A stretch of DNA of 64,000 nucleotides from Escherichia phage Paul. Every line of letters starts with the position of its first letter. Within the stretch, counting starts at the first letter, position 1. Positions 5,883 to 63,721 of the stretch are shown piece after piece. A program made the translations under genes and the position numbers. The stretch is from sequence record NC_070992.1; one strand, written 5' to 3'. The notes beneath the pieces are model-generated. The model did not search any database. It was not told the DNA's origin and worked only from the letters and a program-made list of their open reading frames with translations.

Positions 5883-6119
5883 ATGAACATTAGGCATCAA
5901 TTCAATAAAGAGCACGCCGCCGCTTTGGCGGCTCTCAATCTTAACGGCAGTCTTGACGCAGCATTAGAGGCATTGAAAGAAAGACTCATGACAGAGATAG
6001 TTCAAACCGAACCTCATGAGAATAAGAAACGCGAAGATTGTTATCAAAAGTATAAAATGGTGGGTAGCTTAAAAGAGGTCATAAAAGCTGCTATCAATAG
6101 TGCAGGAGATGTTTCATAA
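5883..6119 (+). CDS. hypothetical protein (78 aa)
   Basis: ORF between portal and scaffold; no motif. Confidence 0.3.
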   Translation: MNIRHQFNKEHAAALAALNLNGSLDAALEALKERLMTEIVQTEPHENKKREDCYQKYKMVGSLKEVIKAAINSAGDVS

Positions 6120-7204
6120 TGCCACAAGATAACTATATTGACCCGAACGATTTTAAATCTTTCCTCCAACTGGATGACCTGAAAGGTTCTTTTAAAGAAG
6201 AGCTTGGTCGATTAGAATCTGAACAAGAACCAGAAGTGGACATTGACGACGAGTTCCCGGAAGATACCGGTGACAGCTTCGACTTTGATACCGACCTTCT
6301 CGGTGAAAGCGATGAGCTTAAGTTCGAAGATGAAGATGGTTGGGAAGATCATGATGAGGAAGGCGAAGTCGAAGAAGATGGGGATGACTCTGATGAAGGT
6401 GATGAAAACACTGAAGCAGAAGAGGAAGACTCAAGCGATGCAGGATATGAAGATGATTCTGCTGACGGTGATGGTGAAGTCTTTGATGTAGACTACGAAA
6501 CCGTTATCACCCTTCCTGATGGACGTGAGATGACTATTGAAGAACTCTCCAATGGCTATCTTACTGGTGCTGACATGACAGAACGAGAATCAACTCTTCA
6601 GCGTCACATGGAAGCATTTGAGGAACGTGTAGTAGGTTTGAAGGATGTATTAGAATTAGCGTCTTTAGAAGCAGACCGAGTAATTGAAGATTACAACGGA
6701 TTTGATTGGGACAAGCTTGCAGTAGAAGATCCTCAAGCATATGTTGAAAACAAACGTTTCCTAGAGAAGTACACAGCTCGTCGTAACCAGCTTGAACAGG
6801 CTCAGGTCCGTATTAAGCAGGAAGCAGCAGCTAAAGAGCAGGAAGCTTTCCAAGCCAAGAGCATTGAATGTGTTAATATTCTGAAACGTGAGATTCCGAA
6901 TTGGGATGAAAACTTATATCAAAACTTAATGCAATACGCAATTGACTTAGGTGCTACTGAAGAAGAAGTATTGAAGGAAAACCGTCCGTCTATTTTCCTA
7001 GCTCTCCATAAAGCATACCAATTTGATAAAGGTAAGCAGCAGGTGATGGCTAAGATTAAACGTCCCGGTGCTCCACGCAAGGTTGTGAAGTCTGATGCTG
7101 CAAAGTCTCGTACTTCCAATAAGCCAGACAACGCTAAGGTTGCCAAGGCATTCGCAGAGGGTCGCGTTAGTCACGAAGACGCATTCAAATTCCTCGTAGA
7201 TTAA
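6119..7204 (+). CDS. putative scaffolding protein (361 aa)
   Basis: position between portal and capsid; about 100-aa D/E-rich tract then helical K/E/Q-rich region. Confidence 0.5.
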   Translation: MPQDNYIDPNDFKSFLQLDDLKGSFKEELGRLESEQEPEVDIDDEFPEDTGDSFDFDTDLLGESDELKFEDEDGWEDHDEEGEVEEDGDDSDEGDENTEAEEEDSSDAGYEDDSADGDGEVFDVDYETVITLPDGREMTIEELSNGYLTGADMTERESTLQRHMEAFEERVVGLKDVLELASLEADRVIEDYNGFDWDKLAVEDPQAYVENKRFLEKYTARRNQLEQAQVRIKQEAAAKEQEAFQAKSIECVNILKREIPNWDENLYQNLMQYAIDLGATEEEVLKENRPSIFLALHKAYQFDKGKQQVMAKIKRPGAPRKVVKSDAAKSRTSNKPDNAKVAKAFAEGRVSHEDAFKFLVD

Positions 7205-7245
7205 TCGACAAATTAATTATTTAATAGTATAGGAGCTAACATAAC

Positions 7246-8307
7246 ATGGCTAATCCAACTTTATTTGTATCGTATGACCAGAATGGTAAAAAACTTTCTT
7301 TTGCTAACTGGATTTCTGTTCTGTCCCCTCAGGATACTCCGTTCGTATCTATGACCGGTAAAGAGTCTATCAACCAGACTATCTTTAGCTGGCAGACCGA
7401 TGCATTGGCAAGCGTTGACGCTAATAACGCACACGTTGAAGGTTCTCGTGCGGTTGATGGTGAAATGCAACCTACCGTAATCAAATCCAACGTTACTCAG
7501 ATTCTGCGTAAGGTTGTTAAAGTTTCTGATACCGCTAACACCACCGCTAACTACGGTCGTGGTCGTGAACTGATGTATCAGCTGGAGAAGAAAGGTAAAG
7601 AGATCAAGCGTGACCTCGAGAAAATCCTTCTGTCCGGTCAGGCTCGTACCGACGTTCTGGCTGACCAATACCTGACTAACTCTGCAACTGATCCTGCAAC
7701 TGTTGGTCTGAACGACACTCATGCAGCTCGTAAGACTGGTGCATTCCAGTTCCTGTGTGCTCACGGTGGTCTTGCTGGTGCTGTCGTTGACAAAACCAAG
7801 AATGGTCCTGCTGACCCGGATACTGGTGCAGTAACTGTTAAAGTTGCACAGAATGCTTCTAACCCGACCACTAACATTGGTTTTGACGAAGCTGATATCT
7901 TTGATATGACTCTGCAACTGTATACCGCTGGTTCTGAAGCAGATATCATCATGATTAACCCGGCTCATGCTAAGATCTTCGCTGGCCTGCAAGAAAATAC
8001 TCAGGGTTCACGTAAGCGTATCTTTGAGAACACCAAGCAGTTCATCTACGAAGTTAACAGCATCACTGACCCTCTGGGCCAGAGCTACAAAATCATCGTT
8101 AACCGTTGGATGCCTACCGATGCAGTTTACTTCTTCCGTAGCGCTGACTGGACTCAGATGGTTCTGCGTGCTCCGAAACGTACTGAACTGGCTAAAGATG
8201 GTTCTTACGAGAAGTGGATGATTGAAATGGAAGTTGGTCTGCGTCACCGCAACCCGTATGCTTCCGGCGTTCTGTTCACTGCTGCGGGAAAGGTAGCGGC
8301 GGCGTAA
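7246..8307 (+). CDS. major capsid protein (353 aa)
   Basis: position after scaffold; SD TAGGAG; strongly biased codon usage (CGT/GGT/CTG) typical of highly expressed virion genes. Confidence 0.75.
   Translation: MANPTLFVSYDQNGKKLSFANWISVLSPQDTPFVSMTGKESINQTIFSWQTDALASVDANNAHVEGSRAVDGEMQPTVIKSNVTQILRKVVKVSDTANTTANYGRGRELMYQLEKKGKEIKRDLEKILLSGQARTDVLADQYLTNSATDPATVGLNDTHAARKTGAFQFLCAHGGLAGAVVDKTKNGPADPDTGAVTVKVAQNASNPTTNIGFDEADIFDMTLQLYTAGSEADIIMINPAHAKIFAGLQENTQGSRKRIFENTKQFIYEVNSITDPLGQSYKIIVNRWMPTDAVYFFRSADWTQMVLRAPKRTELAKDGSYEKWMIEMEVGLRHRNPYASGVLFTAAGKVAAA
8286..8292 (+). other. candidate -1 programmed ribosomal frameshift slippery heptamer G_GGA_AAG
   Basis: X_XXY_YYZ heptamer in capsid zero frame 5 codons before its stop; -1 frame is open from 8226 and encodes GSGG linker then Ig domain; hairpin TAACAGT/ACTGTTA at 8305-8328. 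Confidence 0.5.
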
Positions 8308-8390
8308 CAGTAGAGTCCGTAACTGTTAGTCCTTCGTCGGTTGCAAGCCTTCCGACGGGGGCTACTCAGCAGTTTACAGCTACAGCAGAA

Positions 8391-9929
8391 ATGAGTGACG
8401 GCTCCACAAGCACAACCGGATTTAGTTGGTCCGTTGAGGGCGGTGGGGCTGTTTCTGTTTCTGGGCTATATACTGCACCGAGTGCGTCGCAAGAAACCCC
8501 AGCAACTATTACGGCAACAAAGTCATCCAAGAAAGGAACGGCTACTGTTAATTCTATCTATGAACCAGCGACCATTGTATCAAAAGGTCCTATTACTGGT
8601 AAGATTGGTGGCAGCACTACAGCTTTTACCACAATGTTTACTGCAACCAACTCAGCGTTCTCTGACTACGAGTTTGAAATCACTCCTCCGTCAGCAGGGT
8701 CTTTTAATCTGTCTGGTGTGTTTGGTTTAGATGACAATGCATCTGGAACAGTGACTGTAAAAGCAACACATAAAACTCAGACCTCCGTTACAGCTACTAC
8801 CTCCTTTACTGGAGTTGCTGCTAAAGCTGGAATTGTGACTAAAGGTCCGATCACTACTGCTCTTGTTGGTGGTGATTCAGTAGCTTTCAATACAATGTTT
8901 ACTGCAACCAACTCTTCAGCAGCTGATTATGAAGTTACTGTAACTCCTCCAGCTAATGGATCTTTCGTTGGTAGTTCTGTAGTTCTTTCAGCTAATGCGT
9001 CAGGAAGCACTGTTGTTAAAGCTGTTCACAAAACACAACCTAGTGCAACAGAAACTTGTACATTGTCCAACGTATCACCTAAAGCATCTTTGACAGCTAA
9101 GACAGTAACTGGTAAAGTTGGTGGAGACACTGTTACGTTTGCTGCTTTATTCACAGCAACTAACTCCTCTGCCTCCAATTACATTTTCGTAGCCAACCCT
9201 CCTGGCATGGCAACTTCTATTGATGCAACTACGGGTCTTGTCACTCTAGCAGCTAACGCTACTGGTGATGTTACTATCAAAGCTACTCACAAAACCCAAA
9301 CCTCGGTTACTGCTACAGGGACAATCAGTGGTGTAGTTCCTAAAGCTACTATCACAGGTAAATCTCTTACCGGTAAAGTTGGTGGTGATGTGATTCCTTT
9401 TGCTGATATGTTCACTAGTAACAAGCCAGCATCGGAATTTACCTATGTGTTAACTCCAACTGATGATGTAGGAGAAATCAACACTACTACAGGTGCACTA
9501 ACCCTCTTGGATGCTCCTACAGATGAAGTTATGAATGTGAAAGCTACTCATAAGACTCAAACATCTGTAACGGCAACTGCTACAATTACAGCTACTCCGA
9601 AATTTAAAGGCCTTGTTGCTTCTAATGTTTCTAACACTGTAGTTGTGGGTGCTCCAGAAAACCCACTTGCTACTGATACTATCACGATCACTGACTCGGC
9701 TCAACCGGGTGTTGTTCGGTTTGATGGTGTACCTCAGGGTGCTCTTACCGGCAAACTAATGTATGATGTAGAAGGTACTGATGCAGGTTTGATGGAATTG
9801 TCTCTTTCTGGTCAGGTATTGACAATCACGTTGTCAGCTCCTATTACCAGCGAAGATACTAAAGTAACAATGAGAACTGACCCAGCTTCTACGATATTCC
9901 GTACTTATATTGTTAAATCTGGTGCATAA
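8391..9929 (+). CDS. Ig-like (BIG2-type) repeat protein, probably the C-terminal extension of the capsid via -1 frameshift
   Basis: four to five tandem modules each containing VKATHKTQTSVTAT; reading frame stays open upstream of the ATG back to 8226, overlapping the capsid 3' end. Confidence 0.6.
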   Translation: MSDGSTSTTGFSWSVEGGGAVSVSGLYTAPSASQETPATITATKSSKKGTATVNSIYEPATIVSKGPITGKIGGSTTAFTTMFTATNSAFSDYEFEITPPSAGSFNLSGVFGLDDNASGTVTVKATHKTQTSVTATTSFTGVAAKAGIVTKGPITTALVGGDSVAFNTMFTATNSSAADYEVTVTPPANGSFVGSSVVLSANASGSTVVKAVHKTQPSATETCTLSNVSPKASLTAKTVTGKVGGDTVTFAALFTATNSSASNYIFVANPPGMATSIDATTGLVTLAANATGDVTIKATHKTQTSVTATGTISGVVPKATITGKSLTGKVGGDVIPFADMFTSNKPASEFTYVLTPTDDVGEINTTTGALTLLDAPTDEVMNVKATHKTQTSVTATATITATPKFKGLVASNVSNTVVVGAPENPLATDTITITDSAQPGVVRFDGVPQGALTGKLMYDVEGTDAGLMELSLSGQVLTITLSAPITSEDTKVTMRTDPASTIFRTYIVKSGA

Positions 9930-9935
9930 GAATAA

Positions 9936-9960
9936 AGCCGCCTTCGGGTGGCTTTTCTTG
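9936..9960 (+). terminator. intrinsic terminator
   Basis: AGCCGCC-TTCG-GGTGGCT hairpin followed by TTTCTTGTTTT. Confidence 0.6.
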
Positions 9961-9986
9961 TTTTAAGACCTATACAAGCTAGTGTG

Positions 9987-9995
9987 TAATGTATA
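9987..9995 (+). promoter_or_regulatory. TAATGTATA motif, candidate phage-sigma promoter element
   Basis: exact 9-mer 34 nt upstream of the 10029 ATG, after a terminator; same motif recurs before other operon-initial genes. Confidence 0.45.
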
Positions 9996-10028
9996 TTCTT
10001 TGTCTACATATAACAAGGAGGACAACCT

Positions 10029-10781
10029 ATGGCAATGCCAGATGTTCAATACCCCATCAATACCTATGGGTGGCTAAAGAAGGCCGTGGCCCTCTGGGCA
10101 GATAGGGACGATGACGAATTTGTTAATCAAATTCCAAACTTTATTAACTTTGCAGAGAAAGAGATTTATCGTAACTTACGTATTCCTCCTCTGGAAAAAG
10201 AAGTCTATTTAGATATCAAAGATGGAGTGGCTTATATTCCTCCTGATTACTTAGAAGCTCAATGGATGATGAGAGCCAAAGATGGTACAATCTTCCAAGT
10301 AACCTCTCCTGAAGAGATTAGCTATCGTAGACAGCATGGAACAATTAATCCATCTCATTGGAATAATCAACCTGTTAACTTTGCTCGTTTCGGGAGTCGT
10401 TTCATTTTCTATCCTAGTATTGAAGCAGATACTCCGTACTACCCTGATGATGGAAGCCCTTTGATTCCAGCAGAAAACTCAGTGATTCTTAGCTATTATG
10501 CAGACCCACCGGAATTCCATGAAGATACAGATACTAGTGCTATTCTTACTATCGCACCAGAACTCCTTCTGTACTTCACTCTACGTCATGCTTGTTTGTT
10601 TGTTCAAGATGATAATGGTGTTCAGAAATGGTCAGCACTAGGGAAAGCTATCCTTGATGAAATGGTAGAACAGAATAAGAAACAAGAGTACTCAGGTTCA
10701 CCTATCGCAATTCCGAATAACATGACTCGACTTCAGAGCAGCTTGCCTGATATTTATGGTATTCGTACTTCTCGTGTATAA
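10029..10781 (+). CDS. virion structural protein (putative head-tail adaptor, 250 aa)
   Basis: position between capsid/Ig gene and tail fibre genes; SD AAGGAGG. Confidence 0.4.
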   Translation: MAMPDVQYPINTYGWLKKAVALWADRDDDEFVNQIPNFINFAEKEIYRNLRIPPLEKEVYLDIKDGVAYIPPDYLEAQWMMRAKDGTIFQVTSPEEISYRRQHGTINPSHWNNQPVNFARFGSRFIFYPSIEADTPYYPDDGSPLIPAENSVILSYYADPPEFHEDTDTSAILTIAPELLLYFTLRHACLFVQDDNGVQKWSALGKAILDEMVEQNKKQEYSGSPIAIPNNMTRLQSSLPDIYGIRTSRV

Positions 10782-10790
10782 GGAGATAAT

Positions 10791-13700
10791 ATGATCGTTT
10801 ATAATAACCAAGCACCTGATGCAGTGAATAACGTTGGGCAGTTTGGTGCTACAGAAGGCTCTATCGGAGCTTACAAGCAGGCAGCAGAATATGCAGCTGA
10901 TTCTAAATATTGGGCATTACTAGCTGAGTCTAAGTTTGGTACAATCGATGATCTGATCGCTGAAGTAGAACGTCTGTACCAACAGGGCGCTCTTTTGCAA
11001 CAAGACATTGAAGAGTTGAAGCAAGATTTTAAAGATCAAGATGCTCGATTAATGCAACTCATTGCTCAGACCAACGCAGCAGTAGCTGACGCTCAAAACG
11101 CTCTAGCGCTAATGGACCAGAAGCTTATTGAGGTTCAAGAACGTCTCGACATCTTGCTTGGGATGTCTGTTGATGTTACTACCCTTCCTCCGGGAAATGA
11201 GGCTTCAGGACATTTCGACCCTAATACCGGCGTGATCTCACTAGGGATTCCTCAAGGACTCCCCGGAAAAGATGGGTCTGTTAAAGATTTAGACTCAGCG
11301 CCTGTAGGAACTCCAGAGCTTGGAGATTTGGGTTTCTATGTTGATAAAGATGATAATACAGTACATAAAACATCTTTGGAAAACATTGCTAGTCTTATAC
11401 CTTCTGTTCGAGATATAAGTTTGAATGGTGGGGCACCTCAGTCTGGTAATGTTTCTTTAATCATTGATAAGAACACCGTAGGACTTCCTAACGTAGAAAA
11501 CGTTGCCTCCTACAGTAAAACTGTATCTGATAATAAATTAGGCGGGTTTGTAAAAACTTACGAGAGTAAGGCTCTAGCAGAGGCTGATATCCCAAACCGT
11601 CAAATCGGAGAAACCGTATTAGTTTGGAACAATACATCGTATGTTTTCTATGAGGTAGCCCCTGATTTATCTCTTTCTCTCAAAAAGGAAGAACCTAGGA
11701 TAGTAACCGTTAACTCTCGCATTCCGGACTCCACTGGTAATATTGACATAACAATTCCTACAGGAAACCCATCCCTCTATTTGGGTGAGATGGTCATGTT
11801 TCCTTATGACCCAAACCTTCCAGTATCCTATCCTGGTATTCTTCCTGCTGATGGTAGAGTTGTATCTAAAGCAGCAGCTGGGGATTTGGGTCCGTCTCTG
11901 ATAAGCGGACAACTTCCTGTTGTTTCTGAGAGTCAGTGGCAAAACGGGTCAAGACAATATTTCTCCTGGGGTACCTTAGAAGACGGCTCTGATGCCGACT
12001 CTACTAACTATAGAGAGATACGACTTCCGGATTGGACAGGAGGTGAGGCTATTAGATCTCCAGATGTGAGCAAAGATTCTTCTTACAGCGGAGCACCTTT
12101 ATCACAAGTTCCTTATATTGTTTCAGTGAATAACATAACTCCTGATGATTCCACTGGTAACATCTCCATCACAAGATCTTCTTTGGGTGCGGCGAAGTCT
12201 GGAGACAATTCTGACATTACGTCCTTGTCGGGACTAACAACCCCAATCTCGATTGCACAAGGTGGTCTAGGTGTTACAACTCAAGAAGAGGCGTGGAATG
12301 TTGTCCGTCCTGCTGGACCAACAACGTTATCTACCGCTGCTGTGGGTGAGATGGATGCAGTAACTAAAGGGTATGTTGATCTTATCAAGTCAGATGTAGA
12401 TTACCTGAAGTCACTACCTTCACTTATAGACATATCTAAAGTAGATGGTGTAAGGAACAGTGATATGTTGAATAGCTTTTTCTCTTCAATCAAGGGAGGT
12501 ACAGCAAAAGTCTTCTCAAGTGTTCCGTTAACCTTTACTATAGATAAAACTACAACTCTGTACGGGAATTTTGACTTAAGTAACTGCACATTCAACCTAA
12601 CTGGTGGTCGGGTTATTTATGCAGATGAACGAGACCCAGATTCTTGTTTAAAAGTAATAACTTTATCAGGGTACCCACTACAAGAGTCTAGCAAAGTGTT
12701 AACAACCAATGACTCCCTTCAAGGGTGGGATAATTCCTTAGTTAAGATAACATCTACAGAGATTGACCTATATCGTTATCTCAATGGAGTATCAACCCCT
12801 AAAACTAAAGGTGAAGTTAACTTCTTAACTAAGAATAAAGAGTTAATGTATTCTCTCAAAAATACGTACAACGATCCTGTGTCCTGCACCCTCTACAAAA
12901 TACCTTTAACTAGAAACCAGATCTCCTTACCTAAGATAGAAGGTTCGATTAATATCTTTGCTTTTGATATCAGAAGATCTTTGGTTGATGTTAATATTAT
13001 TATGGATAGCAGCATAGGGCAAACATCTGTAGATTCTACTGTGTTTGGAAGTGGTTTTACTTTCGGGGTTGTTTGGAAAGTTATTGGTTCGGGGATCACT
13101 CAAACTGACACCAACTCTAGATACTCTGTCACCACTGAATTTGCCCTTAAGCATCTATTCACATCTTCTCTTGTAGGCAAGGGATGGAGATCGGTAGATG
13201 GGAATTATAGTAGAGATATGACTTTTAGGGACAGCACTTTTGATTCAATTCAAATGCACTACGGCTGCTCTTCTATCTTAATCTCTGGATGTGAGGTTCC
13301 TTCTGTCATCTTCGGTACTGGAGCCTTTGGAGAAACCACTCAGGTGATTAATTCTGATATCAGTACGTTTGGTATTAGAACGGATTACGGAGAGCACAAG
13401 GGAGATTTTTATGTTACTGGCGGCTCTATAAGAATTCCTAGTACGTCATCTGGGATTGTTGATCTATTCGTCTGTAGAAGCGACAATATCAACTCGTCTG
13501 GTGAACCCTTACAGCCGAGACCTCTCCACCTTCCGAAAAACGTCAAAATCAGCAGTAACATCTATTGGCCTGATTCTGTAACCTTGAACCTTGTTAGTCT
13601 GAAAAACAACTTCAAAACTACAGACACCAATAAGTTTATTACTCCTAGCTTAATAGATTTTTCTGGAAGTACATTTAATGGTAAGCTAGCTAGGTTTGAG

Positions 13701-40400: not shown

Positions 40401-42245
40401 TTAATGTGTGTGCATCCAGTTAAGCCCAATCTGACAATCAGATGCCAGAGGACATTCCATGTTCAAGTACTCACCAGCCTTCTTAACACAAAGCTCGGTG
40501 TGCTCTTTAAGTTTCTGTACATCATTACGGTTCACTGAGAATTGACCTTCATCATGCATATCAATTACCTTAGCACAACGAACCCCATCCTTCTCAATCC
40601 ACTTGTTAAGGAACATCATAGCATATTTCATAACAACAGCACCGGCACATTGCAGGAGTGTGTTAAGGGCTTTATGAACCATAACTTTACCAGTGGCATC
40701 TCGTCTCATTGTAATCTTACGACCATCAACGCCAATCAAGTATCCCTGAGCAGCCTTTTCTGTCATACGATCAATGAGGATTGCAATACATGGGTTCTCT
40801 GCTAAGAAACGTGCTCGCATCACTGAACCTTCGTCAGCCCCACCACCTACAATTGAACCAAGCTTAGCATCACCAGCACCATAGTTGAATGCATAGATAA
40901 ACGTTTTAGCGTTGTCACGAGTAGGAAGACCAGCAAGTTTCTGGTTGTGAGAGTGAATATCACCTTCAAGGAGGATATCACGATACATAATAGCAGAAGC
41001 TAAACCACGTTCTGCCAGAGCTTTCTTAGCTGGATTATTCTCTTCTATTGCTTCAGCAAGCATGTCCCTACACTCTTTAATGAGGTAGTGTGCAAGCATA
41101 CGCAATTCTAATCCAGAACCATCATACCCCAAGAATACCTCTTTACCAGCGGGTATGTAATATTTGTAAGCACCTACAGGCTTGTCTTTCTTCCCCGGCT
41201 TACCTTTCTCATAAATTACGTTAGTACCTTTTCGTATATAACAACCATCAGGAACAACGTTAGTAATAATGAAAGGACGAGAGTGATCATCATCTGAGTT
41301 ATAGTCAGACTCAAACAGACCGCGACACTCATGACCAAACAAACCACGGGAGGGAATATTAACCACGATACGATGTTTGAATCGAAAAGTCGGCGTAGCG
41401 CAGCTGTTAGCTTCTGCCGAAAGTTTACCATCTTCGCGCTCCTTTGCTATAAGTCCACTAATAAGACCTAGCCTGTGAGCCGCTACAACGCGTCTCTTAA
41501 GCAAACTTCCGACACTCCCTAGCTCACCCCCTAACCCTTCTTCAAGAGTCTCCTCGAGGTTTGTAGGAGCTGTAGGCCACTTGTTTGAGGTAGCTAGTGC
41601 TATCTTAATCTCATCAAAAGTGATAGGTCTACGTCGGTTAGGATTTAAACCTAAACCAAATACATAAGCCTTCATGTAGTTCTTAGTTTTAAACCGAAAA
41701 TGCTTCTCTAAGAACTTTCTAATATCAGCGTCAACCATCTCGGCTGTCTGCTTCTGTTTAGCATTACCTCGCATCCAAGCTGAATACCATGCTTGGTATG
41801 TTCCATACTTCCGCATATCTTTCTTGATTTCAAAAGTATTCCAAGGTTTCTTTGATACGTTAAACTCTGGAGGAAGAAAACCCTCATCCATAAGGGCTTC
41901 TTTAACTCGGGCATCTTTCGATGGGTCAAAGTCTACGTACTCAACACAGGTGAATGCTCCACCAATGTCTTCTCTCTTAAGTCCAACTCTATCACAATAG
42001 GCTTGAGGCCATTTCTGTAAAGCTCCAGACTTCTTAAACGGCTTCATGTAAGTAGAGCCATCTAGTCTCATCTTAGGTAAGAGAGGAATTAATTCTTTGT
42101 CAATATTAACAATAATCTCTTTAAGGAGGTGAACATACCACCGAGCATTTCTTCGGTTGAAACTCACTCCGTGCTTTGCTTGCTTAGAGATTATATCAGC
42201 GACAGTCATCTCTGTCAAAAATGGAAGAGCGTCCGGGTTGCTCAC
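40401..42245 (-). CDS. DNA polymerase, family A polymerase domain only
   Basis: motif A GYDGSGLELR, motif B RDNAKTFIYAFNYGAG, motif C IDMHDE; no 3'-5' exonuclease domain in this ORF. Confidence 0.85.
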   Translation of the reverse strand: MSNPDALPFLTEMTVADIISKQAKHGVSFNRRNARWYVHLLKEIIVNIDKELIPLLPKMRLDGSTYMKPFKKSGALQKWPQAYCDRVGLKREDIGGAFTCVEYVDFDPSKDARVKEALMDEGFLPPEFNVSKKPWNTFEIKKDMRKYGTYQAWYSAWMRGNAKQKQTAEMVDADIRKFLEKHFRFKTKNYMKAYVFGLGLNPNRRRPITFDEIKIALATSNKWPTAPTNLEETLEEGLGGELGSVGSLLKRRVVAAHRLGLISGLIAKEREDGKLSAEANSCATPTFRFKHRIVVNIPSRGLFGHECRGLFESDYNSDDDHSRPFIITNVVPDGCYIRKGTNVIYEKGKPGKKDKPVGAYKYYIPAGKEVFLGYDGSGLELRMLAHYLIKECRDMLAEAIEENNPAKKALAERGLASAIMYRDILLEGDIHSHNQKLAGLPTRDNAKTFIYAFNYGAGDAKLGSIVGGGADEGSVMRARFLAENPCIAILIDRMTEKAAQGYLIGVDGRKITMRRDATGKVMVHKALNTLLQCAGAVVMKYAMMFLNKWIEKDGVRCAKVIDMHDEGQFSVNRNDVQKLKEHTELCVKKAGEYLNMECPLASDCQIGLNWMHTH

Positions 42246-46366: not shown

Positions 46367-46512
46367 CAGAAATTCCTGCTAATCCTCTGGATTATGAGAA
46401 CAGCAATACTCACATACTCCGCAACATGGACAAATTTCTACACTTGGGTCATATGCGTCATCAACTGTCATCCCACACTTGGTGCAGAACACGTCATCAT
46501 CTTCTTCCAATA

Positions 46513-47169
46513 TTAACTCTCCAAAGTTTTCTTCAGGGCTGCCCATGAGATTGGGTAGAGCTTAGCCATCTCTTCGTCTAGGGATTTAGCAAATACTCGA
46601 ACTTCGTATTGAGCGTGAGAGGAGAGTCGCTGACGACACAACTCAAACCAGCCATACAAAGAACCAGTCCACACCCACTCAGTGATCATCCCCTGAGGTA
46701 GTACAAATCGGGCTTGCTCTGGTGCAATAAACTCAATCAACTTGTCATATGCTGCTAGAGAAGCTTCATATGCATCGTTAATTAACATTAATGCTTCAGC
46801 TCGCTCTCCGTCGATGAGCTGAACCCCTGAACCTGCATGGAGGTCCGAAGGTCTCGCAAAAATCTCTTTAGGGATGAAGACTTCAACTGCTCCATCTTTA
46901 TACCGCCGGGACATTTCGTTCCACGAGAATCCAACCTGATGCTTGCCCAGCTGTCTCGCAATTGCGATAGGTGCTTTGCATCGGAAACTGACTTGCGGGT
47001 GTCGGAATGGGGTAACATGCTTCTCTCTTGCGAGGAAGTTGATGAGACGTTCATCACGTTCATTTAAATCACCTTCACGGGTTACGCCAAAGGAAACTCG
47101 AGCTGCGTTTACTACGCTACGATCACTTCCCATAGCTTCGATTAATGTTGCTTGTAATTGTTCATTCAT
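46513..47169 (-). CDS. thyX: flavin-dependent thymidylate synthase ThyX-like
   Basis: HVTPFRH ... KAPIAIARQ ... NEMSRRY aligns with the ThyX core; the expected RHR signature reads KHQ. Confidence 0.75.
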   Translation of the reverse strand: MNEQLQATLIEAMGSDRSVVNAARVSFGVTREGDLNERDERLINFLAREKHVTPFRHPQVSFRCKAPIAIARQLGKHQVGFSWNEMSRRYKDGAVEVFIPKEIFARPSDLHAGSGVQLIDGERAEALMLINDAYEASLAAYDKLIEFIAPEQARFVLPQGMITEWVWTGSLYGWFELCRQRLSSHAQYEVRVFAKSLDEEMAKLYPISWAALKKTLES

Positions 47170-47184
47170 CCGTGAATTTCCTTA

Positions 47185-47394
47185 TTAATATTCCTTGATT
47201 GGGGATACCACAAAACCACCAAGAGGTGAGGTAAAAGATTTATGTAAGCTTATTTTGCTATAAATCTTTGGAGCCATCTTAAGAGCCTTCTTAAAACGAC
47301 GAGCATCTTTACGAGTAGCAAAATGCTCTGTAACAGGTATAGAATGGTCTTGGTAGATACAATACATCACCGTCCAGTATTTTCCCATAATCAA
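47185..47394 (-). CDS. small protein, paralog family A (69 aa)
   Basis: shares TRxxARxFKK core and C-terminal aromatic/Tyr end with 48871-49486 ORFs. Confidence 0.4.
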   Translation of the reverse strand: MIMGKYWTVMYCIYQDHSIPVTEHFATRKDARRFKKALKMAPKIYSKISLHKSFTSPLGGFVVSPIKEY

Positions 47395-47663
47395 ACACCT
47401 AGTGCAGTAGTTAAAAATGCTTTCAGGTTTGCCTCAGTCTGCATACCAGAGAGGCTGTAGTGTGCACCACTGTTACGGTCAGGTACGACGAAAGCAGGTA
47501 TGCTTCGTACACCATATTTAACAGCTTGTTCACGACCATCTCCTTCAAGGATGTTAATCTCTTCCACTTCTACATCAAACTCCCTAACAACCTTCTCAAA
47601 GGTAGGAGCCATTGCTTTACATGGAGCACACTGATCACTATAAAACTTAATTACTTTAGACAT
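47391..47663 (-). CDS. thioredoxin-like protein
   Basis: CAPC active-site CxxC near N-terminus, thioredoxin-fold length. Confidence 0.65.
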   Translation of the reverse strand: MSKVIKFYSDQCAPCKAMAPTFEKVVREFDVEVEEINILEGDGREQAVKYGVRSIPAFVVPDRNSGAHYSLSGMQTEANLKAFLTTALGV

Positions 47664-47912: not shown

Positions 47913-48476
47913 TTAGTAAGACACATCACCACTTGAATGGGACATGTTGCTCTTGACGAAGTAACAATACTTGCCAAGACCTTCATTAATTTCTTGAAGC
48001 ATACTCTGATCGACAGGGTAGGAGGCTAAATCACCATCAAACTCATCCATCTTCTCAATAATACACATCAAGGTCATGCACATATCAGAGAGCATACCAT
48101 CCATATCTAGATCAGCATTCCCCTCTGAGAACCAAGCGTGGGATAGGTAGTTAGCTGCTGTAGCATCCACTTTAACACAGTGGTAACGCATACGTTCAGC
48201 AATACGATCTCCTACTTGTCGTGCGTAATCTTCCAGCTCATCAAACATACCATGAACACCCTGAAATCCTGCACCAGAGACGTTCCAGTGGTAGTTTTTA
48301 GCTTTGATATGCAAGAGTTCCATGTTAGCTTGTAAGCAGCTCAGGATGTGTTCTATGCTGTTTCCACTAATCATGCCTTGCATCGTTTCAAGGCGAGAGA
48401 TTGATAGGTCGGACCGGTCTAACATACTATAGCTGTCACGACCAATATCAGGTAAATCAAAGACATTCTTATGCAT
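47913..48476 (-). CDS. Dps / ferritin-like protein
   Basis: KNYHWNVSGAGFQGVHGMFDELEDYARQVGDRIAERM matches the Dps ferroxidase-helix pattern; start set at ATG 48476 to avoid overlap. Confidence 0.5.
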   Translation of the reverse strand: MHKNVFDLPDIGRDSYSMLDRSDLSISRLETMQGMISGNSIEHILSCLQANMELLHIKAKNYHWNVSGAGFQGVHGMFDELEDYARQVGDRIAERMRYHCVKVDATAANYLSHAWFSEGNADLDMDGMLSDMCMTLMCIIEKMDEFDGDLASYPVDQSMLQEINEGLGKYCYFVKSNMSHSSGDVSY

Positions 48477-48798
48477 TTGGGTTTTCTCCATCAAGTTCAA
48501 CTGAGTTAGCAACGTTACGTGCAATATTATCCATTACCTGCTGGGTAATTACGATGCAGTTCTGTGGGTCTACTGACTTAGAACGCCCCATTTCAGGGTC
48601 ATACACCTTAACACGCTTAGCAGTTGAACCTGTAACCTGAAGAACCTTCAATAGATATCCCTGATTACCAATAGACCAAGCAACAACATCACGATTCTTG
48701 ATAAAGCGACCAAGCATATCACGATGATAAAACTGTTGCATCACCTTGGATTTTGTAATCTCTTCAGTGGGCGGGGCCACTTTACTCAAATCTAACAT
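48469..48798 (-). CDS. hypothetical protein (109 aa)
   Basis: ORF; near-match AAATGTATA motif about 40 nt upstream at 48838-48846. Confidence 0.35.
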   Translation of the reverse strand: MLDLSKVAPPTEEITKSKVMQQFYHRDMLGRFIKNRDVVAWSIGNQGYLLKVLQVTGSTAKRVKVYDPEMGRSKSVDPQNCIVITQQVMDNIARNVANSVELDGENPNA

Positions 48799-48870: not shown

Positions 48871-49080
48871 TTAGTAGTAAACTACTTTAGACATAAAAGA
48901 ACCCGAGCTAGGGTCTTCGTACCAGCGATGAATGTCAGCACTTTTAACAGTTCCTATTAGAGCTTTCATATTCTTTTTAGCGACACGAGCCTCTTTGCGA
49001 GTGTTAAACAGTTTGATATTATCTTTACCTAAGTGTTGTTTCTGTTCCCAGACAACACGAATAGCCCACATCTTTTTCAT
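48871..49080 (-). CDS. small protein, paralog family A (69 aa)
   Basis: tandem paralog; ATGA-type junctions. Confidence 0.4.
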   Translation of the reverse strand: MKKMWAIRVVWEQKQHLGKDNIKLFNTRKEARVAKKNMKALIGTVKSADIHRWYEDPSSGSFMSKVVYY

Positions 49081-58940: not shown

Positions 58941-59019
58941 TTTCTAATCCACCTGAAGGGTAAACCCTTTCATCTAATTAACCTTTAAATTGTGCCCCTT
59001 TGCCAGAGGCACCCATTGA

Positions 59020-60123
59020 TTACAGCGCTTGCTCTAACTGATGTTCCAGATGATCTGGAATGTACCCTGTGATGTTATTATCACTGTGACCTGACTCACG
59101 AAGCAAGTCAAAAATAGCACGGATACGTTGTTCTGGTGCAGATCGTACTTGAGACAAGTCAGTTGTACGAAGCATAACCAGAATCTCTTGATATAAGTTG
59201 TTAGCGTTCCCTCGTACATATCCAAGGAATCCATAGAAGTCTGAGATAAGACGTAAGTCAACAAGAACCTCTCCGTTGGAGTTGGTTCGACGTAAACGAA
59301 TACGACCAGACTGTTCTACTTCATGAGAACGACAATACAAAACATCACGGGCCATACAATACCCTGAATGCAAATCCGATTCGTCCAGATTGTAATCCAG
59401 AGGAAGGTAAGGAAGCATTGGGGCAAATCGTACAGTATTTAAATGCTCAATAAACTGATCATTGCTCATCTCTGCGTTATCTAAAGCCAGTTTCTTCAAC
59501 ATCAAGAAGCGGTTAACCAGATTGAGAAGTTGACCACGTTTCCACTTAGGCTCACTGATACGGAACTCAATTGAACCATATTGTGCAAGTGGCAGAAGGT
59601 TCAGGGATGTATACTTATCCCATGAACGAACCAGACGATTGAAGAACTCTTCATCGTCGTAGTTAAATGCGTCAGAGGCATTCATTACCTGTGCTTGTAC
59701 CACTGCAAAAGCAGGGCAGAAGTTGCTACGGTAACGATGATAGCCTGAACACTTGAACAACATCTTTTCATAGAAGGTCCAAGCGAGAATGGTTTTCTTG
59801 AGGATATTACTATCAGCATCCCTCATATCCATATGAACGTGAGTAGAGCAACGCCAAGTCCCCTCGGCGTGCGATTCAGCTACTGCTTCACTCAGGTTGT
59901 TGATAGCGTCTAACAACTCCTGTCCGTTGTAAGGCCGTGAACATACCATTTCACAACCATTACGCAGGGAACCATCCTCTGTACAATCCCACATATCTGC
60001 TTCGATATGGTCGGAGCCTTCGAGTTCTAGTTCGATACCGACACCGCACTGAAGTGCAATTGAACTATGCGCCTCAGTTAAACGACCTTCTCGATATCCA
60101 AAAGTTTGCGCTACAGTTGTCAT
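59020..60123 (-). CDS. glutamine-synthetase-like amidoligase (carboxylate-amine ligase)
   Basis: IELELEG strand, GSLRNGCEMV, STHVHMD, consistent with the GS/GCS-like amidoligase fold. Confidence 0.55.
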   Translation of the reverse strand: MTTVAQTFGYREGRLTEAHSSIALQCGVGIELELEGSDHIEADMWDCTEDGSLRNGCEMVCSRPYNGQELLDAINNLSEAVAESHAEGTWRCSTHVHMDMRDADSNILKKTILAWTFYEKMLFKCSGYHRYRSNFCPAFAVVQAQVMNASDAFNYDDEEFFNRLVRSWDKYTSLNLLPLAQYGSIEFRISEPKWKRGQLLNLVNRFLMLKKLALDNAEMSNDQFIEHLNTVRFAPMLPYLPLDYNLDESDLHSGYCMARDVLYCRSHEVEQSGRIRLRRTNSNGEVLVDLRLISDFYGFLGYVRGNANNLYQEILVMLRTTDLSQVRSAPEQRIRAIFDLLRESGHSDNNITGYIPDHLEHQLEQAL

Positions 60124-60737
60124 AACGAATCCACCAACGTAATATTGTAATTGCTAAGGTTTTCAGAAATGTGATGAAAGTGTTCCAGAAGTCGCATCGG
60201 TTGCTGACCGTAAGAGTCACGAGGTGCTTCCAGATCTACTTGTCCTACCAGTGCACCTTTATAGTGCACCTTACCATCCGTAGGGTTGATGTAAATATAA
60301 CGAGTAACCAATCCTTCGAATTCAGGATTGAACAGACTGTAAACCATCTCTCCAGAGATAGCACGACCAACACCCGGAGCATTTCGAATCTTATTACCCA
60401 TTAAGCCCTTTGCTCTCTGGCGAACAGGGTTAATATGAGTCCAGCTTACAGTGTTACCGTTATGGAACAGATAACCAACGTCAGGTGATTCAAGAATTAA
60501 GGTTGGGTCGAACACTGGAATATTCATCGTAGTGTTTCGAAGATTCCCTTGCTCATTCTTGTACCACTGCTCTACAACAAAGTACAGAGCCTGTTCTGCT
60601 TCGTGAGAGAAGTCATCACTGCGGAAGTTACCGCTCTGCTCAACACCAATCACAAAACATGGAAGGTTGATACTACCTGCTCGTTTAGCAATCCATGTAC
60701 CATTATAGTAATGAGAAAAATCAGCTACTAAGCTCAC
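60120..60737 (-). CDS. hypothetical protein (205 aa), cluster member
   Basis: ORF overlapping neighbours by 4 nt; no motif recognised. Confidence 0.35.
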   Translation of the reverse strand: MSLVADFSHYYNGTWIAKRAGSINLPCFVIGVEQSGNFRSDDFSHEAEQALYFVVEQWYKNEQGNLRNTTMNIPVFDPTLILESPDVGYLFHNGNTVSWTHINPVRQRAKGLMGNKIRNAPGVGRAISGEMVYSLFNPEFEGLVTRYIYINPTDGKVHYKGALVGQVDLEAPRDSYGQQPMRLLEHFHHISENLSNYNITLVDSL

Positions 60738-60746
60738 GATAACCTC

Positions 60747-61553
60747 TTATGCTACCTGAAGGAGTTTGATCTGCTGGTCCGCTTCTTTAACGTTGTTGCC
60801 GTTAATGATTTCATGAAGCTTCTCAATCGGAAGGCGAGAGTGTAATGCCATCAGAGTGGACATATCGCACTGCTGAACAACCTTGTCAACCTGATCGTAA
60901 ACAAACTTACGGTTTTCACGATCACTAATCCAGAAGTTAGACAGTGAACGGTATTCAATACCATAGTCTTTATAACGGATTGCAGATGCTTTGCCATAGA
61001 GTTCTTTACGGCGAGTATCTTTGTCCATAATAACTGCTGGAAGTGACAGGAAGTAATCACACAGCACACCCAACATCATCTGAGTTTGCAGAGTGATATC
61101 CAAAGCACCAACCACACCAAGATGTACGTGACCACCGGCAGTACGAAGTCCCTTATTCTGAGAAGTCGGGGATGGATTCTTCTGACCAGTGAAGGCGTTG
61201 AAATCAGGAGTGCACCCGAAGATGAACGCTGATTCGTTGAAAGTTTTCATCTCTTCTTCAGTGAAGATGTGAGAGCTAACACCCGGAGCAGTTTCCATGT
61301 CCAGTTTGTTCAGGACATTATTGGTGAGATCGATACCACGTTGCATGTTATCGTTAAACGCTTCAAAACCGCTCTGTGGGTCAATATCAAACTCAGCCAG
61401 TACGTTGTCCTCTTGAAGACGAACATCCTTAGCCAGGGTGATCTTATCGTCCTTAGAACAGCCTAACAGACCAGCCACAGAAGTGATGATGCCATTGCTG
61501 GTACGAACAAACATTTCAGGATCAGAGCCGATAAGGAATTTGCGCTTAGTCAT
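60747..61553 (-). CDS. candidate second COOH-NH2 ligase-like protein (268 aa)
   Basis: FLIGSDPEMF and GGHVHLG resemble the ExE and HxH elements of GS-like ligases; weaker than 59020-60123. Confidence 0.4.
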   Translation of the reverse strand: MTKRKFLIGSDPEMFVRTSNGIITSVAGLLGCSKDDKITLAKDVRLQEDNVLAEFDIDPQSGFEAFNDNMQRGIDLTNNVLNKLDMETAPGVSSHIFTEEEMKTFNESAFIFGCTPDFNAFTGQKNPSPTSQNKGLRTAGGHVHLGVVGALDITLQTQMMLGVLCDYFLSLPAVIMDKDTRRKELYGKASAIRYKDYGIEYRSLSNFWISDRENRKFVYDQVDKVVQQCDMSTLMALHSRLPIEKLHEIINGNNVKEADQQIKLLQVA

Positions 61554-62517
61554 TGTAATACTCCACTAGTTCAGAAAAGAGAGATGAGATTGTGTTACCA
61601 ACTTCTTCAGTAGTAAGGCCAGAACTTGGGCCAGTACGTTGAATTAGTCGGGCTGTAAAGTTTTGTACTATAATGTTTTCCAACTTATTGTCTATTGCTT
61701 CACGTTTGTGACCATGACAGTTGGACCAGAGTCTTAACCACTCTGACATTGTTTCATACTCGTCCGGGTCTTGATCTTTAGCACGAGCAAATCTTCGTAA
61801 GGCATCTTGGTTATGGTTGCGAACATAACCGTCCTTGTTGTCACCAACACCGAAGGGGTTTTGAACCCATACTTGTTTCGTGTATTCATCAGAGTCTACA
61901 ACCAAAGGAAGGAATGCTGCTGCTGACATATTGTTGTTAACAACAATAGAGGTGCTCTCGCTACTCCCATTGGCTCTTCCTCGTTGAGACCACCCACCGA
62001 AGAAGTCACGACCCAACCCAGCTAACACTAGAGCGATTCCGATGCGTTTACGCTTCAGCCACTCTTCCCTGTCTTCAATTCCTTCTGCTAGGAAATCCAT
62101 TCCACGATACTGCCCTTCCAGAATACTGCGGAAAAGCATAAGTCCTGTGAAGATTTGATCTGCTGGATGCTCACGGAGGTTGACAGCAACACTATTCGCT
62201 GAAGTGATCGTAAATACATCACGATAGCAAGACATAGAGTTCATAATGTCTGCTGTTTCAACCAAGTTCTTTTCAATATCAGATGAAACATGACCGTGAA
62301 AAGAGTGAGTCCAGTAATTCAACATCTCCAGTTGCAAGTTGATATCACGGTTGAAACGTCTATAACGTCCTTCTTCCGTGATAACTTCGCCATCAATATC
62401 ATTTACGCATTGGCCTTGCATGTAGTTGTGAATACCGAAGCACCCACGACCTAAGAACTTCTGTTCCCCTAAATCTTGTTGAAGATTCAGAGGTACGATC
62501 GTTGTGGAGATTGACAT
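61546..62517 (-). CDS. hypothetical protein (323 aa), cluster member
   Basis: ORF; no motif recognised. Confidence 0.35.
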   Translation of the reverse strand: MSISTTIVPLNLQQDLGEQKFLGRGCFGIHNYMQGQCVNDIDGEVITEEGRYRRFNRDINLQLEMLNYWTHSFHGHVSSDIEKNLVETADIMNSMSCYRDVFTITSANSVAVNLREHPADQIFTGLMLFRSILEGQYRGMDFLAEGIEDREEWLKRKRIGIALVLAGLGRDFFGGWSQRGRANGSSESTSIVVNNNMSAAAFLPLVVDSDEYTKQVWVQNPFGVGDNKDGYVRNHNQDALRRFARAKDQDPDEYETMSEWLRLWSNCHGHKREAIDNKLENIIVQNFTARLIQRTGPSSGLTTEEVGNTISSLFSELVEYYND

Positions 62518-62527
62518 AACTAACCTT

Positions 62528-63721
62528 TTATTTTCCTAAAAATAATCCGCTCATAACACCATCCCACTCAGAGGATGGAATCACTGAATACTCCGAACTT
62601 TGGTCCAGAATCCCACTACTAAATCGCTGAACAATGTTGTAGATGTTGAACAGGTCTTTAGCCTCGGCACGAATGCCGTAGATTAGCCTGTTAGCTGTTT
62701 TCTCATTTTTAGACACGCGACGGGTAAAGTTAACCAAAAGATTGTCACCTTTAAGTATCTCTGACCCATCTTTTACTAGATCGGGGTGCATCACTGGCAA
62801 GAACATTGAGTTGTTAACTCGCAATTCTGCTGTTTCATCGTTCTCATAATGAATCCACTTAAAGTCTTCATCACGGAAGTGACCACATCCATCTCTGTAC
62901 GACTGCTGACGCCAAGGCACTTGAAATGCTTCAGCGTATTTATCAGCCATACCTACTGTAAACAGCGACGCTGGGAAGATACAAGCATCCCAATCATTAC
63001 CAACCAGAGTTGCTTTCGTTTCGCCCAAGAGGTTAGTGTAAGTGCTAACCATTCGTGAGTAAACATAAGCCTGAAGGATTGTCCAGCCTTCAACCAACCA
63101 TTTATGAAGGAAGGTTTCAACTTGACTCTCTTCATCTTCGCAATAGAAGGTTCGATCTAACATCAAATAGAACAGACAACGATCAGCAGGAACATTCTCA
63201 GTTGCTACCCCCATAAAACCTTTCTCGTGCCAGCGTAAACAGGAGGGACGATCTTTGTCCACAAATGCTTCCATAGCTTCCAGTACAGCACGAGGTGTGG
63301 TTCGATGCTCAGGGTTTTTGTCATTCCAACGTTCAATGTTGTTTTTAAGCTCGCCTTCGTAATCAATAGCACCCCAACCTAAAGCTGCGGATACAGGTTT
63401 TTCATCACGCCAACGTCTAAAACCTAACATCTTCATGTGAGTTCCGGAGTTCCAGATATGCTTGATTTTACACATATCCATTTCTCGACTTAACAGGAAC
63501 TCTTCCCCATCAGCACTACGAACGTTAGCTTCTTCATGCCACACTCGAACGTGCATATTCCACCCATGAGTTGCCTCATACATGTTAGGGTCGAAGTATT
63601 CATCTTCGTCATCATCCTCATCAACGCCACCGTTATAGTTGCGAAGCTGAAGGAACCCATAACAAGGAGGGTTGACCGTTAAAACATTACCTTCAGTATC
63701 TTCTAATGTTACTGGAAACAT
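62528..63721 (-). CDS. hypothetical protein (397 aa), cluster member
   Basis: ORF; acidic N-terminal tract, several Cys; no motif recognised. Confidence 0.35.
   Translation of the reverse strand: MFPVTLEDTEGNVLTVNPPCYGFLQLRNYNGGVDEDDDEDEYFDPNMYEATHGWNMHVRVWHEEANVRSADGEEFLLSREMDMCKIKHIWNSGTHMKMLGFRRWRDEKPVSAALGWGAIDYEGELKNNIERWNDKNPEHRTTPRAVLEAMEAFVDKDRPSCLRWHEKGFMGVATENVPADRCLFYLMLDRTFYCEDEESQVETFLHKWLVEGWTILQAYVYSRMVSTYTNLLGETKATLVGNDWDACIFPASLFTVGMADKYAEAFQVPWRQQSYRDGCGHFRDEDFKWIHYENDETAELRVNNSMFLPVMHPDLVKDGSEILKGDNLLVNFTRRVSKNEKTANRLIYGIRAEAKDLFNIYNIVQRFSSGILDQSSEYSVIPSSEWDGVMSGLFLGK

Follow-up and report, generated by a model that had tools for sequence, protein, structure and literature searches.

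What does a flavin-dependent thymidylate synthase (ThyX) do when the signature of its family is missing? The motif RHR-x7-S has stood as that signature since it was given by Myllykallio in 2002 and has been used to filter sequence sets (both according to PMC2826268). Escherichia phage Paul, a Kuravirus and hence one of the phiEco32-like C3 podoviruses that infect E. coli, raises this question because the product of its thyX gene reads lysine–histidine–glutamine (KHQ) where RHR is expected. We analysed a 64,000-nucleotide stretch of sequence record NC_070992.1 (hereafter, the window) that contains the gene. Paul thyX very probably encodes a working synthase that converts deoxyuridine monophosphate (dUMP) to deoxythymidine monophosphate (dTMP), belongs to a widespread non-RHR class and feeds the supply of deoxythymidine triphosphate (dTTP). 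The locus most likely represents an ordinary function that a known enzyme performs in a form that departs from the textbook class, as judged from sequence comparisons.

The thyX gene and its KHQ motif

The thyX interval holds one open reading frame (ORF) on the minus strand, with an ATG start and an AAGGA ribosome-binding sequence around 9 nucleotides upstream (Table 1). The original prediction, made from the letters of the DNA, had aligned the encoded protein with the core of ThyX, and profile and structure comparisons bear this out. The match to Pfam PF02511 (Thy1/ThyX) runs end to end, with residues 8–206 covering profile positions 1–190 of 191 (E = 1.8e-43; 149 bits against a cut-off of 24.8); the NCBIfam thyX equivalog TIGR02170 is matched at 129.2 bits (cut-off, 87.9), and PHROG thymidylate synthase families take in the protein. 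Thy1 is its only Pfam match, and homology of the ORF to ThyA was not found. The AlphaFold2 model, for which 66 homologues were used, has a mean predicted local distance difference test score of 94.6 and a predicted template-modelling (TM) score of 0.88. The top 50 Foldseek matches of this model in the PDB are all T. maritima ThyX (TM scores of 0.77–0.83; E ~1e-18), and it superposes on the T. maritima ThyX crystal structures (1o26/8reo) at TM scores of 0.81–0.83. The model is of the monomer only; ThyX is a homotetramer in which each active site is built from three subunits.

Paul ThyX is 100% identical to ThyX of Escherichia phage KM01, and 105 phage records contain a ThyX of at least 60% identity. 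The 6.5-kb region around the gene is around 93–95% identical to the best-matching Gordonclarkvirinae genomes. A 55-residue cysteine-rich ORF (CxxC ... CPCCGVCEYCC; 46379–46546, minus strand) begins 34 nucleotides inside the 3′ end of thyX, and in phage WFI101126 its position is held by a gene of a different size.

The placement of KHQ at the RHR site, also proposed in the original prediction, is reproduced by HMMER alignments to the solved structures 6j61 (Thermus) and 1kq4 (T. maritima) and by MAFFT alignments, all of which set K76-H77-Q78 of Paul under R78-H79-R80 of T. maritima ThyX (the numbering of the latter is denoted Tm). Paul has one extra residue, giving KHQ-x8-S87 against RHR-x7-S88. 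We also looked for an intact RHR elsewhere; the tripeptide is absent from the entire 218-residue protein, to which the signature RHR-x7-S does not fit. The replacement is conserved. Among the 120 closest database clusters (54–92% identity), the lysine, histidine and glutamine columns are kept in 120, 119 and 120, respectively, and the pattern ARQLxKHQxGFSWNExSRRY is unchanged in 115 of the 120 closest homologues (those matched by a pattern search), down to 54% identity. KHQ is thus under purifying selection and does not represent an isolated or accidental change. As the variant is shared by hundreds of Pfam-positive sequences, RHR-x7-S marks the canonical class and not homology.

The residues that handle the substrate are all retained. 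Tm H53, R74, Q75, N85, E86, S88, R90, Y91, E144, R147, R174 and Q180 are kept in Paul ThyX (among them H51, Q73, E85, S87, R89, Y90, R154 and R181 for Tm H53, Q75, E86, S88, R90, Y91, R147 and R174), and these twelve residues are near-invariant in 270 class members. Kinetic and structural work has assigned to S88, R90, Y91 and R174 the activation of dUMP and assistance in methylene transfer (PMC8316439), and H53 stacks on folate and flavin (PMC11940539). The suggestion that the enzyme might handle an altered substrate is not borne out, as all dUMP residues are conserved (PMC8316439), and the substrate is probably unchanged.

The same residues bear on two other readings of the protein. It could have lost catalysis or taken on another role, such as that of a regulator that binds dUMP or folate, given that only one of the three motif residues remains and that RHRX7S, which it lacks, has served to select genuine ThyX sequences (PMC2826268). 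However, the catalytic residues are kept, and S88, R90, Y91, R147 and R174 would not be expected to survive in a dead enzyme; the motif region is invariant over hundreds of clusters and the class provides the local thyX in housekeeping contexts (see below), which makes this reading extremely improbable. Equally hard to credit is the methylation of another nucleotide (UMP or dCMP), as in the ThyX paralogue PolB of polyoxin biosynthesis. ThyX paralogues with relaxed nucleotide specificity exist (PMC5954106), but the arginines that recognize uracil (R174 and R90) and those that bind phosphate (R147 and R74) are kept in Paul, the thyX equivalog cut-off is exceeded and the genomic context is the supply of deoxynucleoside triphosphates (dNTPs), not antibiotic synthesis.

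Linked changes at the flavin site

A scan across all of 1.84 billion cluster representatives yielded 6912 ThyX relatives. From these, the best 150 representatives of 50%-identity clusters (37–57% identity) were taken as a sample of the variant class, and residues were compared in Tm numbering between this sample and 7 canonical sequences (Table 1). The changes extend well beyond the triad.

Table 1 Features of Paul thyX and of other nucleotide genes in the window, with residues compared between canonical and variant ThyX
Feature	Coordinates	Strand	Basis or observation
thyX coding sequence, 218 amino acids; predicted non-RHR flavin-dependent thymidylate synthase	46513..47169	-	ORF list, PF02511, TIGR02170, AlphaFold2 model
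Codon H51 (Tm H53)	47017..47019	-	Conserved; residue comparison
Codon R56 (at Tm E58)	47002..47004	-	Glu in 7/7 canonical sequences and 1/150 variant representatives
Codons K76-H77-Q78 (AAG CAT CAG), at canonical R78-H79-R80 of T. maritima	46936..46944	-	Alignments; codons read directly
Tm 78-79-80			Canonical R-H-R; Paul K-H-Q; variant class mostly K-H-Q or K-H-x
Codons S87-R88-R89-Y90 (Tm S88-G89-R90-Y91)	46900..46911	-	Catalytic Ser/Arg/Tyr kept; Arg88 for Gly89
Tm 89			Canonical G or Q; Paul R; R in 142/150 variant representatives
Tm 143			Canonical R (K or A in 2/7); Paul P; P in 130/150 variant representatives
Codon R154 (Tm R147)	46708..46710	-	Invariant in both classes
Codon Y172 (at Tm R165; M. 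tuberculosis (Mtb) R190, H. pylori R165)	46654..46656	-	FAD ligand in canonical ThyX, lost here
Tm 165			Canonical R or H; variant mostly Y, L, A, M or F; basic (H) in 3/150
Codon R181 (Tm R174, dUMP-activating arginine)	46627..46629	-	R in 150/150 representatives
dCTP deaminase, 177 amino acids	49690..50223	-	Pfam DCD PF22769, E 3.6e-34; TIGR02274 equivalog, 106.8 bits (cut-off 92.8)
DUF3310/T7 gp1.7-like dNMP kinase, 177 amino acids	34194..34727	-	Pfam DUF3310; PHROG 26149 'deoxynucleoside monophosphate kinase', E 1.3e-83

In structures from M. tuberculosis and H. pylori, RHR, Mtb S71 (Tm T55) and Mtb R190 (Tm R165) hydrogen bond to the AMP phosphate, the ribityl and the flavin mononucleotide (FMN) phosphate of flavin adenine dinucleotide (FAD), and the first RHR arginine also contacts the isoalloxazine ring and dUMP (PMC6514825). 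In the reduced T. maritima enzyme, R78 faces flavin N1/C2=O (PMC11940539), and Basta 2012 counted R78 and R80 among the hydrogen-bond partners of dUMP (PMC3498832). The original statement that the RHR arginines belong to the dUMP-binding site therefore holds in part: the first arginine touches dUMP and R80 is listed too, but the motif mainly holds the ribityl and phosphates of FAD.

Of the FAD ribityl and phosphate ligands, Paul keeps H77 and T53, has lysine for R78 and has lost both R80 (to glutamine) and R165 (to tyrosine); the stretch from Tm R147 to R174 aligns with Paul ThyX without gaps. K76 is a conservative change that keeps the positive charge at the flavin N1 locus. Among 164 sequences, R80 occurs together with E58 in 8, neither residue is present in 151 and 5 are mixed, a correlation that is confounded by phylogeny, as in essence it sets two clades apart. 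The pattern shows, all the same, that KHQ is not to be understood on its own. Going by the ligand roles above, the variant class has exchanged much of its flavin-phosphate clamp. G89R was considered as the sole compensator for the loss of R80 and rejected, as SRRY also occurs with RHR (P0255) and SGRY with KHQ (P0245).

In an ordinary dTMP synthase, the changes of the class (R78K, R80Q, loss of E58 and R165, and gain of R89) would rewire the hold on the flavin ribityl and pyrophosphate and leave the chemistry unchanged. Alternatively, the same reaction could proceed with a different mode of flavin use—weak or exchangeable FAD, FMN or another flavin, or another reductant—because the arginines that clamp the FAD ribityl and pyrophosphate are gone. 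The class-wide coupled changes at Tm E58, R78, R80, G89, R143 and R165 point in this direction, as does the binding of AMP phosphate, ribityl and FMN phosphate by RHR and Mtb R190 (PMC6514825). However, the phylogenetic confounding applies to these coupled changes as well; H79 and the S/T55 ligand are kept, K76 retains the charge, and new arginines (R88, as well as R56 in close relatives) could take over the binding of phosphate. We regard a different flavin mode as possible, albeit doubtful. The earlier suggestion of altered cofactor handling is supported indirectly, by the coupled loss of R80 and R165 and the lysine at R78 (PMC11940539).

The non-RHR class in phages and bacteria

Members of the class occur in over 100 Kuravirus-type genomes, in numerous further phage groups and on the chromosomes of Spirochaetia, Chloroflexota, Nitrospinota and Poribacteria. 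When the 150 representatives were aligned with Paul ThyX and T. maritima ThyX (152 sequences), KHQ proved the commonest triad (77 sequences), with KHK in 16 and RHR in no more than 2, T. maritima ThyX itself included; most of the remaining triads are RHT, RHQ, KHT and others. Erwinia phage Faunus and Roseobacter phage CRP-227 have KHQ, as in Paul, whereas Klebsiella phage GADU21 (N4-like, Schitoviridae) has KHK, and Bacillus phages SP-15 and Bolokhovo and Streptomyces phage MulchMansion have K-Y-x. All six share the class signature of Paul (K78, SRRY, P/A143 and a non-basic residue 165), differ among themselves at triad positions 2–3 and come from unrelated hosts and genome types; some, such as SP-15, have large insertions after the motif. 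Their proteins are annotated simply as thymidylate synthase. The genes lie beside ribonucleotide reductase (RNR; GADU21), primase/helicase (Faunus) or deoxynucleoside kinase (SP-15) genes, contexts that are typical of dNTP supply.

Some members have intermediate signatures. P0245 (221 amino acids) combines KHQ with SGRY, R143 and H165, and the Chloroflexia loci L062, L066, L068–L070 and L074 combine KH[IV] with SGRY, K143 and Q165, which suggests a stepwise evolution between the two classes. In P0122 (480 amino acids), an HNH-containing intein lies exactly inside the motif, between KHQSGF and SWNE, and two Chloroflexia non-RHR thyX genes also bear inteins at this site (L077, 5860–7785; L083, 5398–7293; genes of 632–642 amino acids). 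Inteins tend to lie at functionally critical sites. Liu & Yang (2004) reportedly noted 'distinctive ThyX motifs' in a cyanobacterial ThyX, which may represent the same class.

When one genome of each prokaryotic species was searched with the patterns ARQLxKHQxG and W.WTGSL, 70 loci emerged, each of which has the variant signature. On a complete 1.79-Mb Spirochaetia chromosome (OZ251568.1; locus L017, region 5980–11255), the KHQ-class thyX overlaps the end of a short-chain dehydrogenase/reductase gene and adjoins genes for dihydroorotate dehydrogenase, orotidine monophosphate decarboxylase/phosphoribosyltransferase, aspartate carbamoyltransferase and a dihydroorotase-like protein; these neighbours constitute the pyrimidine de novo pathway. 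Contigs of Chloroflexota, Nitrospinota and Poribacteria have as thyX neighbours genes for 2-oxoacid dehydrogenase, a major facilitator superfamily transporter, AcrB, IspH, MlaA and an aminotransferase, and on a 1.55-Mb contig the gene adjoins a formiminotransferase-cyclodeaminase-type folate gene. The Nitrososphaerales and Amphritea loci, which contain genes for RNR, a clamp and a primase, appear to be viral or prophage-like. Because the chromosomal members are kept in housekeeping contexts in several phyla, they most probably represent the thymidylate synthase of the cell, and any other role is very unlikely.

An evolutionary survey dropped sequences that deviate from RHRX7S by more than 2 residues (PMC2826268), and such filtering may be the reason that the class went unremarked.

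Thymidylate supply, DNA modification and known systems

The original prediction had pointed to a dCTP deaminase near thyX, and matches to PF22769 and TIGR02274 confirm its identity (Table 1). Together with the gp1.7-like deoxynucleoside monophosphate (dNMP) kinase, which is likely to act on dTMP to give dTDP, it would complete an ordinary route to dTTP. The phage deaminase would convert dCTP to dUTP and the host dUTPase (Dut) dUTP to dUMP; ThyX, with flavin reduced by NADPH and with methylene-tetrahydrofolate, would then methylate C5 of dUMP to yield dTMP and tetrahydrofolate. Release of tetrahydrofolate would mean that no dihydrofolate reductase is needed. The phage kinase, followed by the host NDP kinase (Ndk), would carry dTMP to dTDP and dTTP. 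We infer the reaction and fluxes of this route from gene identities. No thyA, dut or second thyX was found in the 64-kb window, in which the best tblastn match of an approximate sequence of E. coli ThyA has E = 0.58. The window has a G+C content of 40–45% and E. coli one of around 51%, and extra dTTP would suit a phage genome of 42% G+C that replicates in such a host. The same three nucleotide enzymes are listed in the Kuravirus literature (PMC9965538).

Other genes lie among and beyond these. A ferritin/Dps-like protein (47913–48524) and a thioredoxin (47391–47663) are encoded between thyX and dcd, and four paralogous ORFs of 65–69 amino acids (47185–47394, 48871–49080, 49080–49289 and 49289–49486), which share W7, a T-R-x-x-A-R-x-x-K core and a C-terminal tyrosine, are interspersed with thyX and dcd. 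The DNA polymerase, of family A, is apparently split between two genes, one for its polymerase domain (40401–42245) and one for its 3′–5′ exonuclease domain (51581–52138), that lie around 9 kb apart. A phiEco32-type amidoligase cluster (54142–63721) encodes gamma-glutamyl cyclotransferase (GGACT), ATP-grasp and Amidoligase_2 enzymes, a glutamine amidotransferase and a 'phiEco32-like COOH.NH2 ligase', as well as three ORFs without a family match. All are on the minus strand.

Several points weigh against an ordinary dTMP synthase. R80 and R165, which are FAD ligands in canonical structures, are missing and the family signature is absent, and the activity and cofactor use of Paul ThyX are therefore extrapolated. 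Our literature search found no biochemical or structural study of any non-RHR ThyX, and solved structures contain no KHQ-type motif region, the best PDB matches to the segment being T. maritima RHR chains. The bacterial members were judged by their gene neighbours. Finally, Gordonclarkvirinae reportedly resist restriction-modification systems to an unusual degree although no modification pathway is known in them (PMC11990801), so that a non-canonical pyrimidine would be compatible with the sequence alone.

This resistance invites a reading in which the product has changed: the exocyclic-methylene intermediate would be diverted to 5-hydroxymethyl-dUMP or another C5-substituted dUMP that feeds DNA modification. 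Such a methylene, which forms in the ThyX mechanism, could be trapped by nucleophiles (PMC8989533), and other authors suspected dcd and a neighbouring nucleotidyltransferase gene (PMC11990801); the BASEL authors flagged the latter as a candidate for DNA modification. In Paul, the gene for this 466-residue 'nucleotidyltransferase' (50236–51636, minus strand) is flanked by dcd and the gene for the polymerase exonuclease; the sole match of the protein is PHROG 12715, and searches of Pfam, NCBIfam and PDB sequences gave no match. Yet the residues for hydride transfer and dUMP activation are all intact, and the class is found both on bacterial chromosomes, beside pyrimidine biosynthesis and other housekeeping genes, and in very different phage groups, beside RNR or primase genes. 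Hypermodification through 5-hydroxymethyldeoxyuridine (5-hmdU) needs a ThyA-like dUMP hydroxymethylase, a 5-hmdU DNA kinase and aGPT-Pplase (PMC8989533). No dUMP hydroxymethylase, 5-hmdU kinase, aGPT-Pplase or glycosyltransferase was found with Pfam and PHROGs among the ORFs of the replication and nucleotide module, in a scan that was not exhaustive for ORFs of less than 100 amino acids and that left around 12 kb of the genome outside the window. Moreover, phiEco32 DNA has been restriction-profiled, restriction-mapped and subcloned (PMC9965538); the SU10 and Korf 2019 papers hold no restriction-digest or base-composition data for Kuraviruses. A changed product is thus very unlikely. The pyrimidine modification route that had been thought conceivable finds no support, as dCTP deaminase, ThyX and dNMP kinase all belong to the ordinary dTTP route and the class also occurs in bacterial housekeeping contexts. 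It is likewise unlikely, if less so, that the class uses flavin in a fundamentally different way or that the Kuravirus product is C5-modified dUMP and not dTMP, with either contributing to the restriction resistance of Gordonclarkvirinae.

If Paul ThyX is an ordinary dTMP synthase, as we favour, the result is a useful refinement of annotation and not new biology. Its interest lies in a class that is without two of the three RHR residues and a further FAD-binding arginine and yet looks fully functional. ThyX will have been under-counted by motif-based surveys, and the flavin-phosphate clamp would seem to be evolutionarily replaceable, which matters for the mechanism and for ThyX-targeted inhibitors.

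Compared with known enzymes, Paul ThyX has the same family and fold as T. maritima TM0449 (1o26) and Thermus thermophilus ThyX (6j61), with 31–34% identity to T. maritima ThyX chains over structural alignments. It shares with canonical ThyX H53, the dUMP ligands R74, Q75, E86, S88, R90, R147 and R174 and the lid tyrosine Y91, and differs in KHQ-x8-S for RHR-x7-S, E58R, G89R, R143P, N163S and R165Y. ThyX of mycobacteriophages L5 (gp48) and Rizal (gp90), cyanophage S-CAM9, Thermus phage phiYS40 and Pseudomonas phage PAJD-1 are, like that of Paul, auxiliary thymidylate synthases that phages encode in modules for nucleotide metabolism or replication. In contrast to Paul ThyX, to which they are only around 24–33% identical, they keep E58, RHR and R/H165.

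The published explanation of the restriction resistance speculates that deoxyuridine (dU) replaces thymidine in the DNA through dCTP deaminase and the adjacent nucleotidyltransferase, and ThyX is unmentioned in its discussion of this phage group (PMC11990801). PBS1-type phages, which have dU-for-T genomes, and Paul both have a phage route that raises dUTP/dUMP, through dCTP deaminase. A dU genome requires that thymidylate synthesis be avoided. Unlike this model, Paul encodes a conserved ThyX and a dNMP kinase; because ThyX is at least 60% identical in 105 phage records and is accompanied by the kinase, the conserved thymidylate synthase argues against dU genomes in Gordonclarkvirinae.

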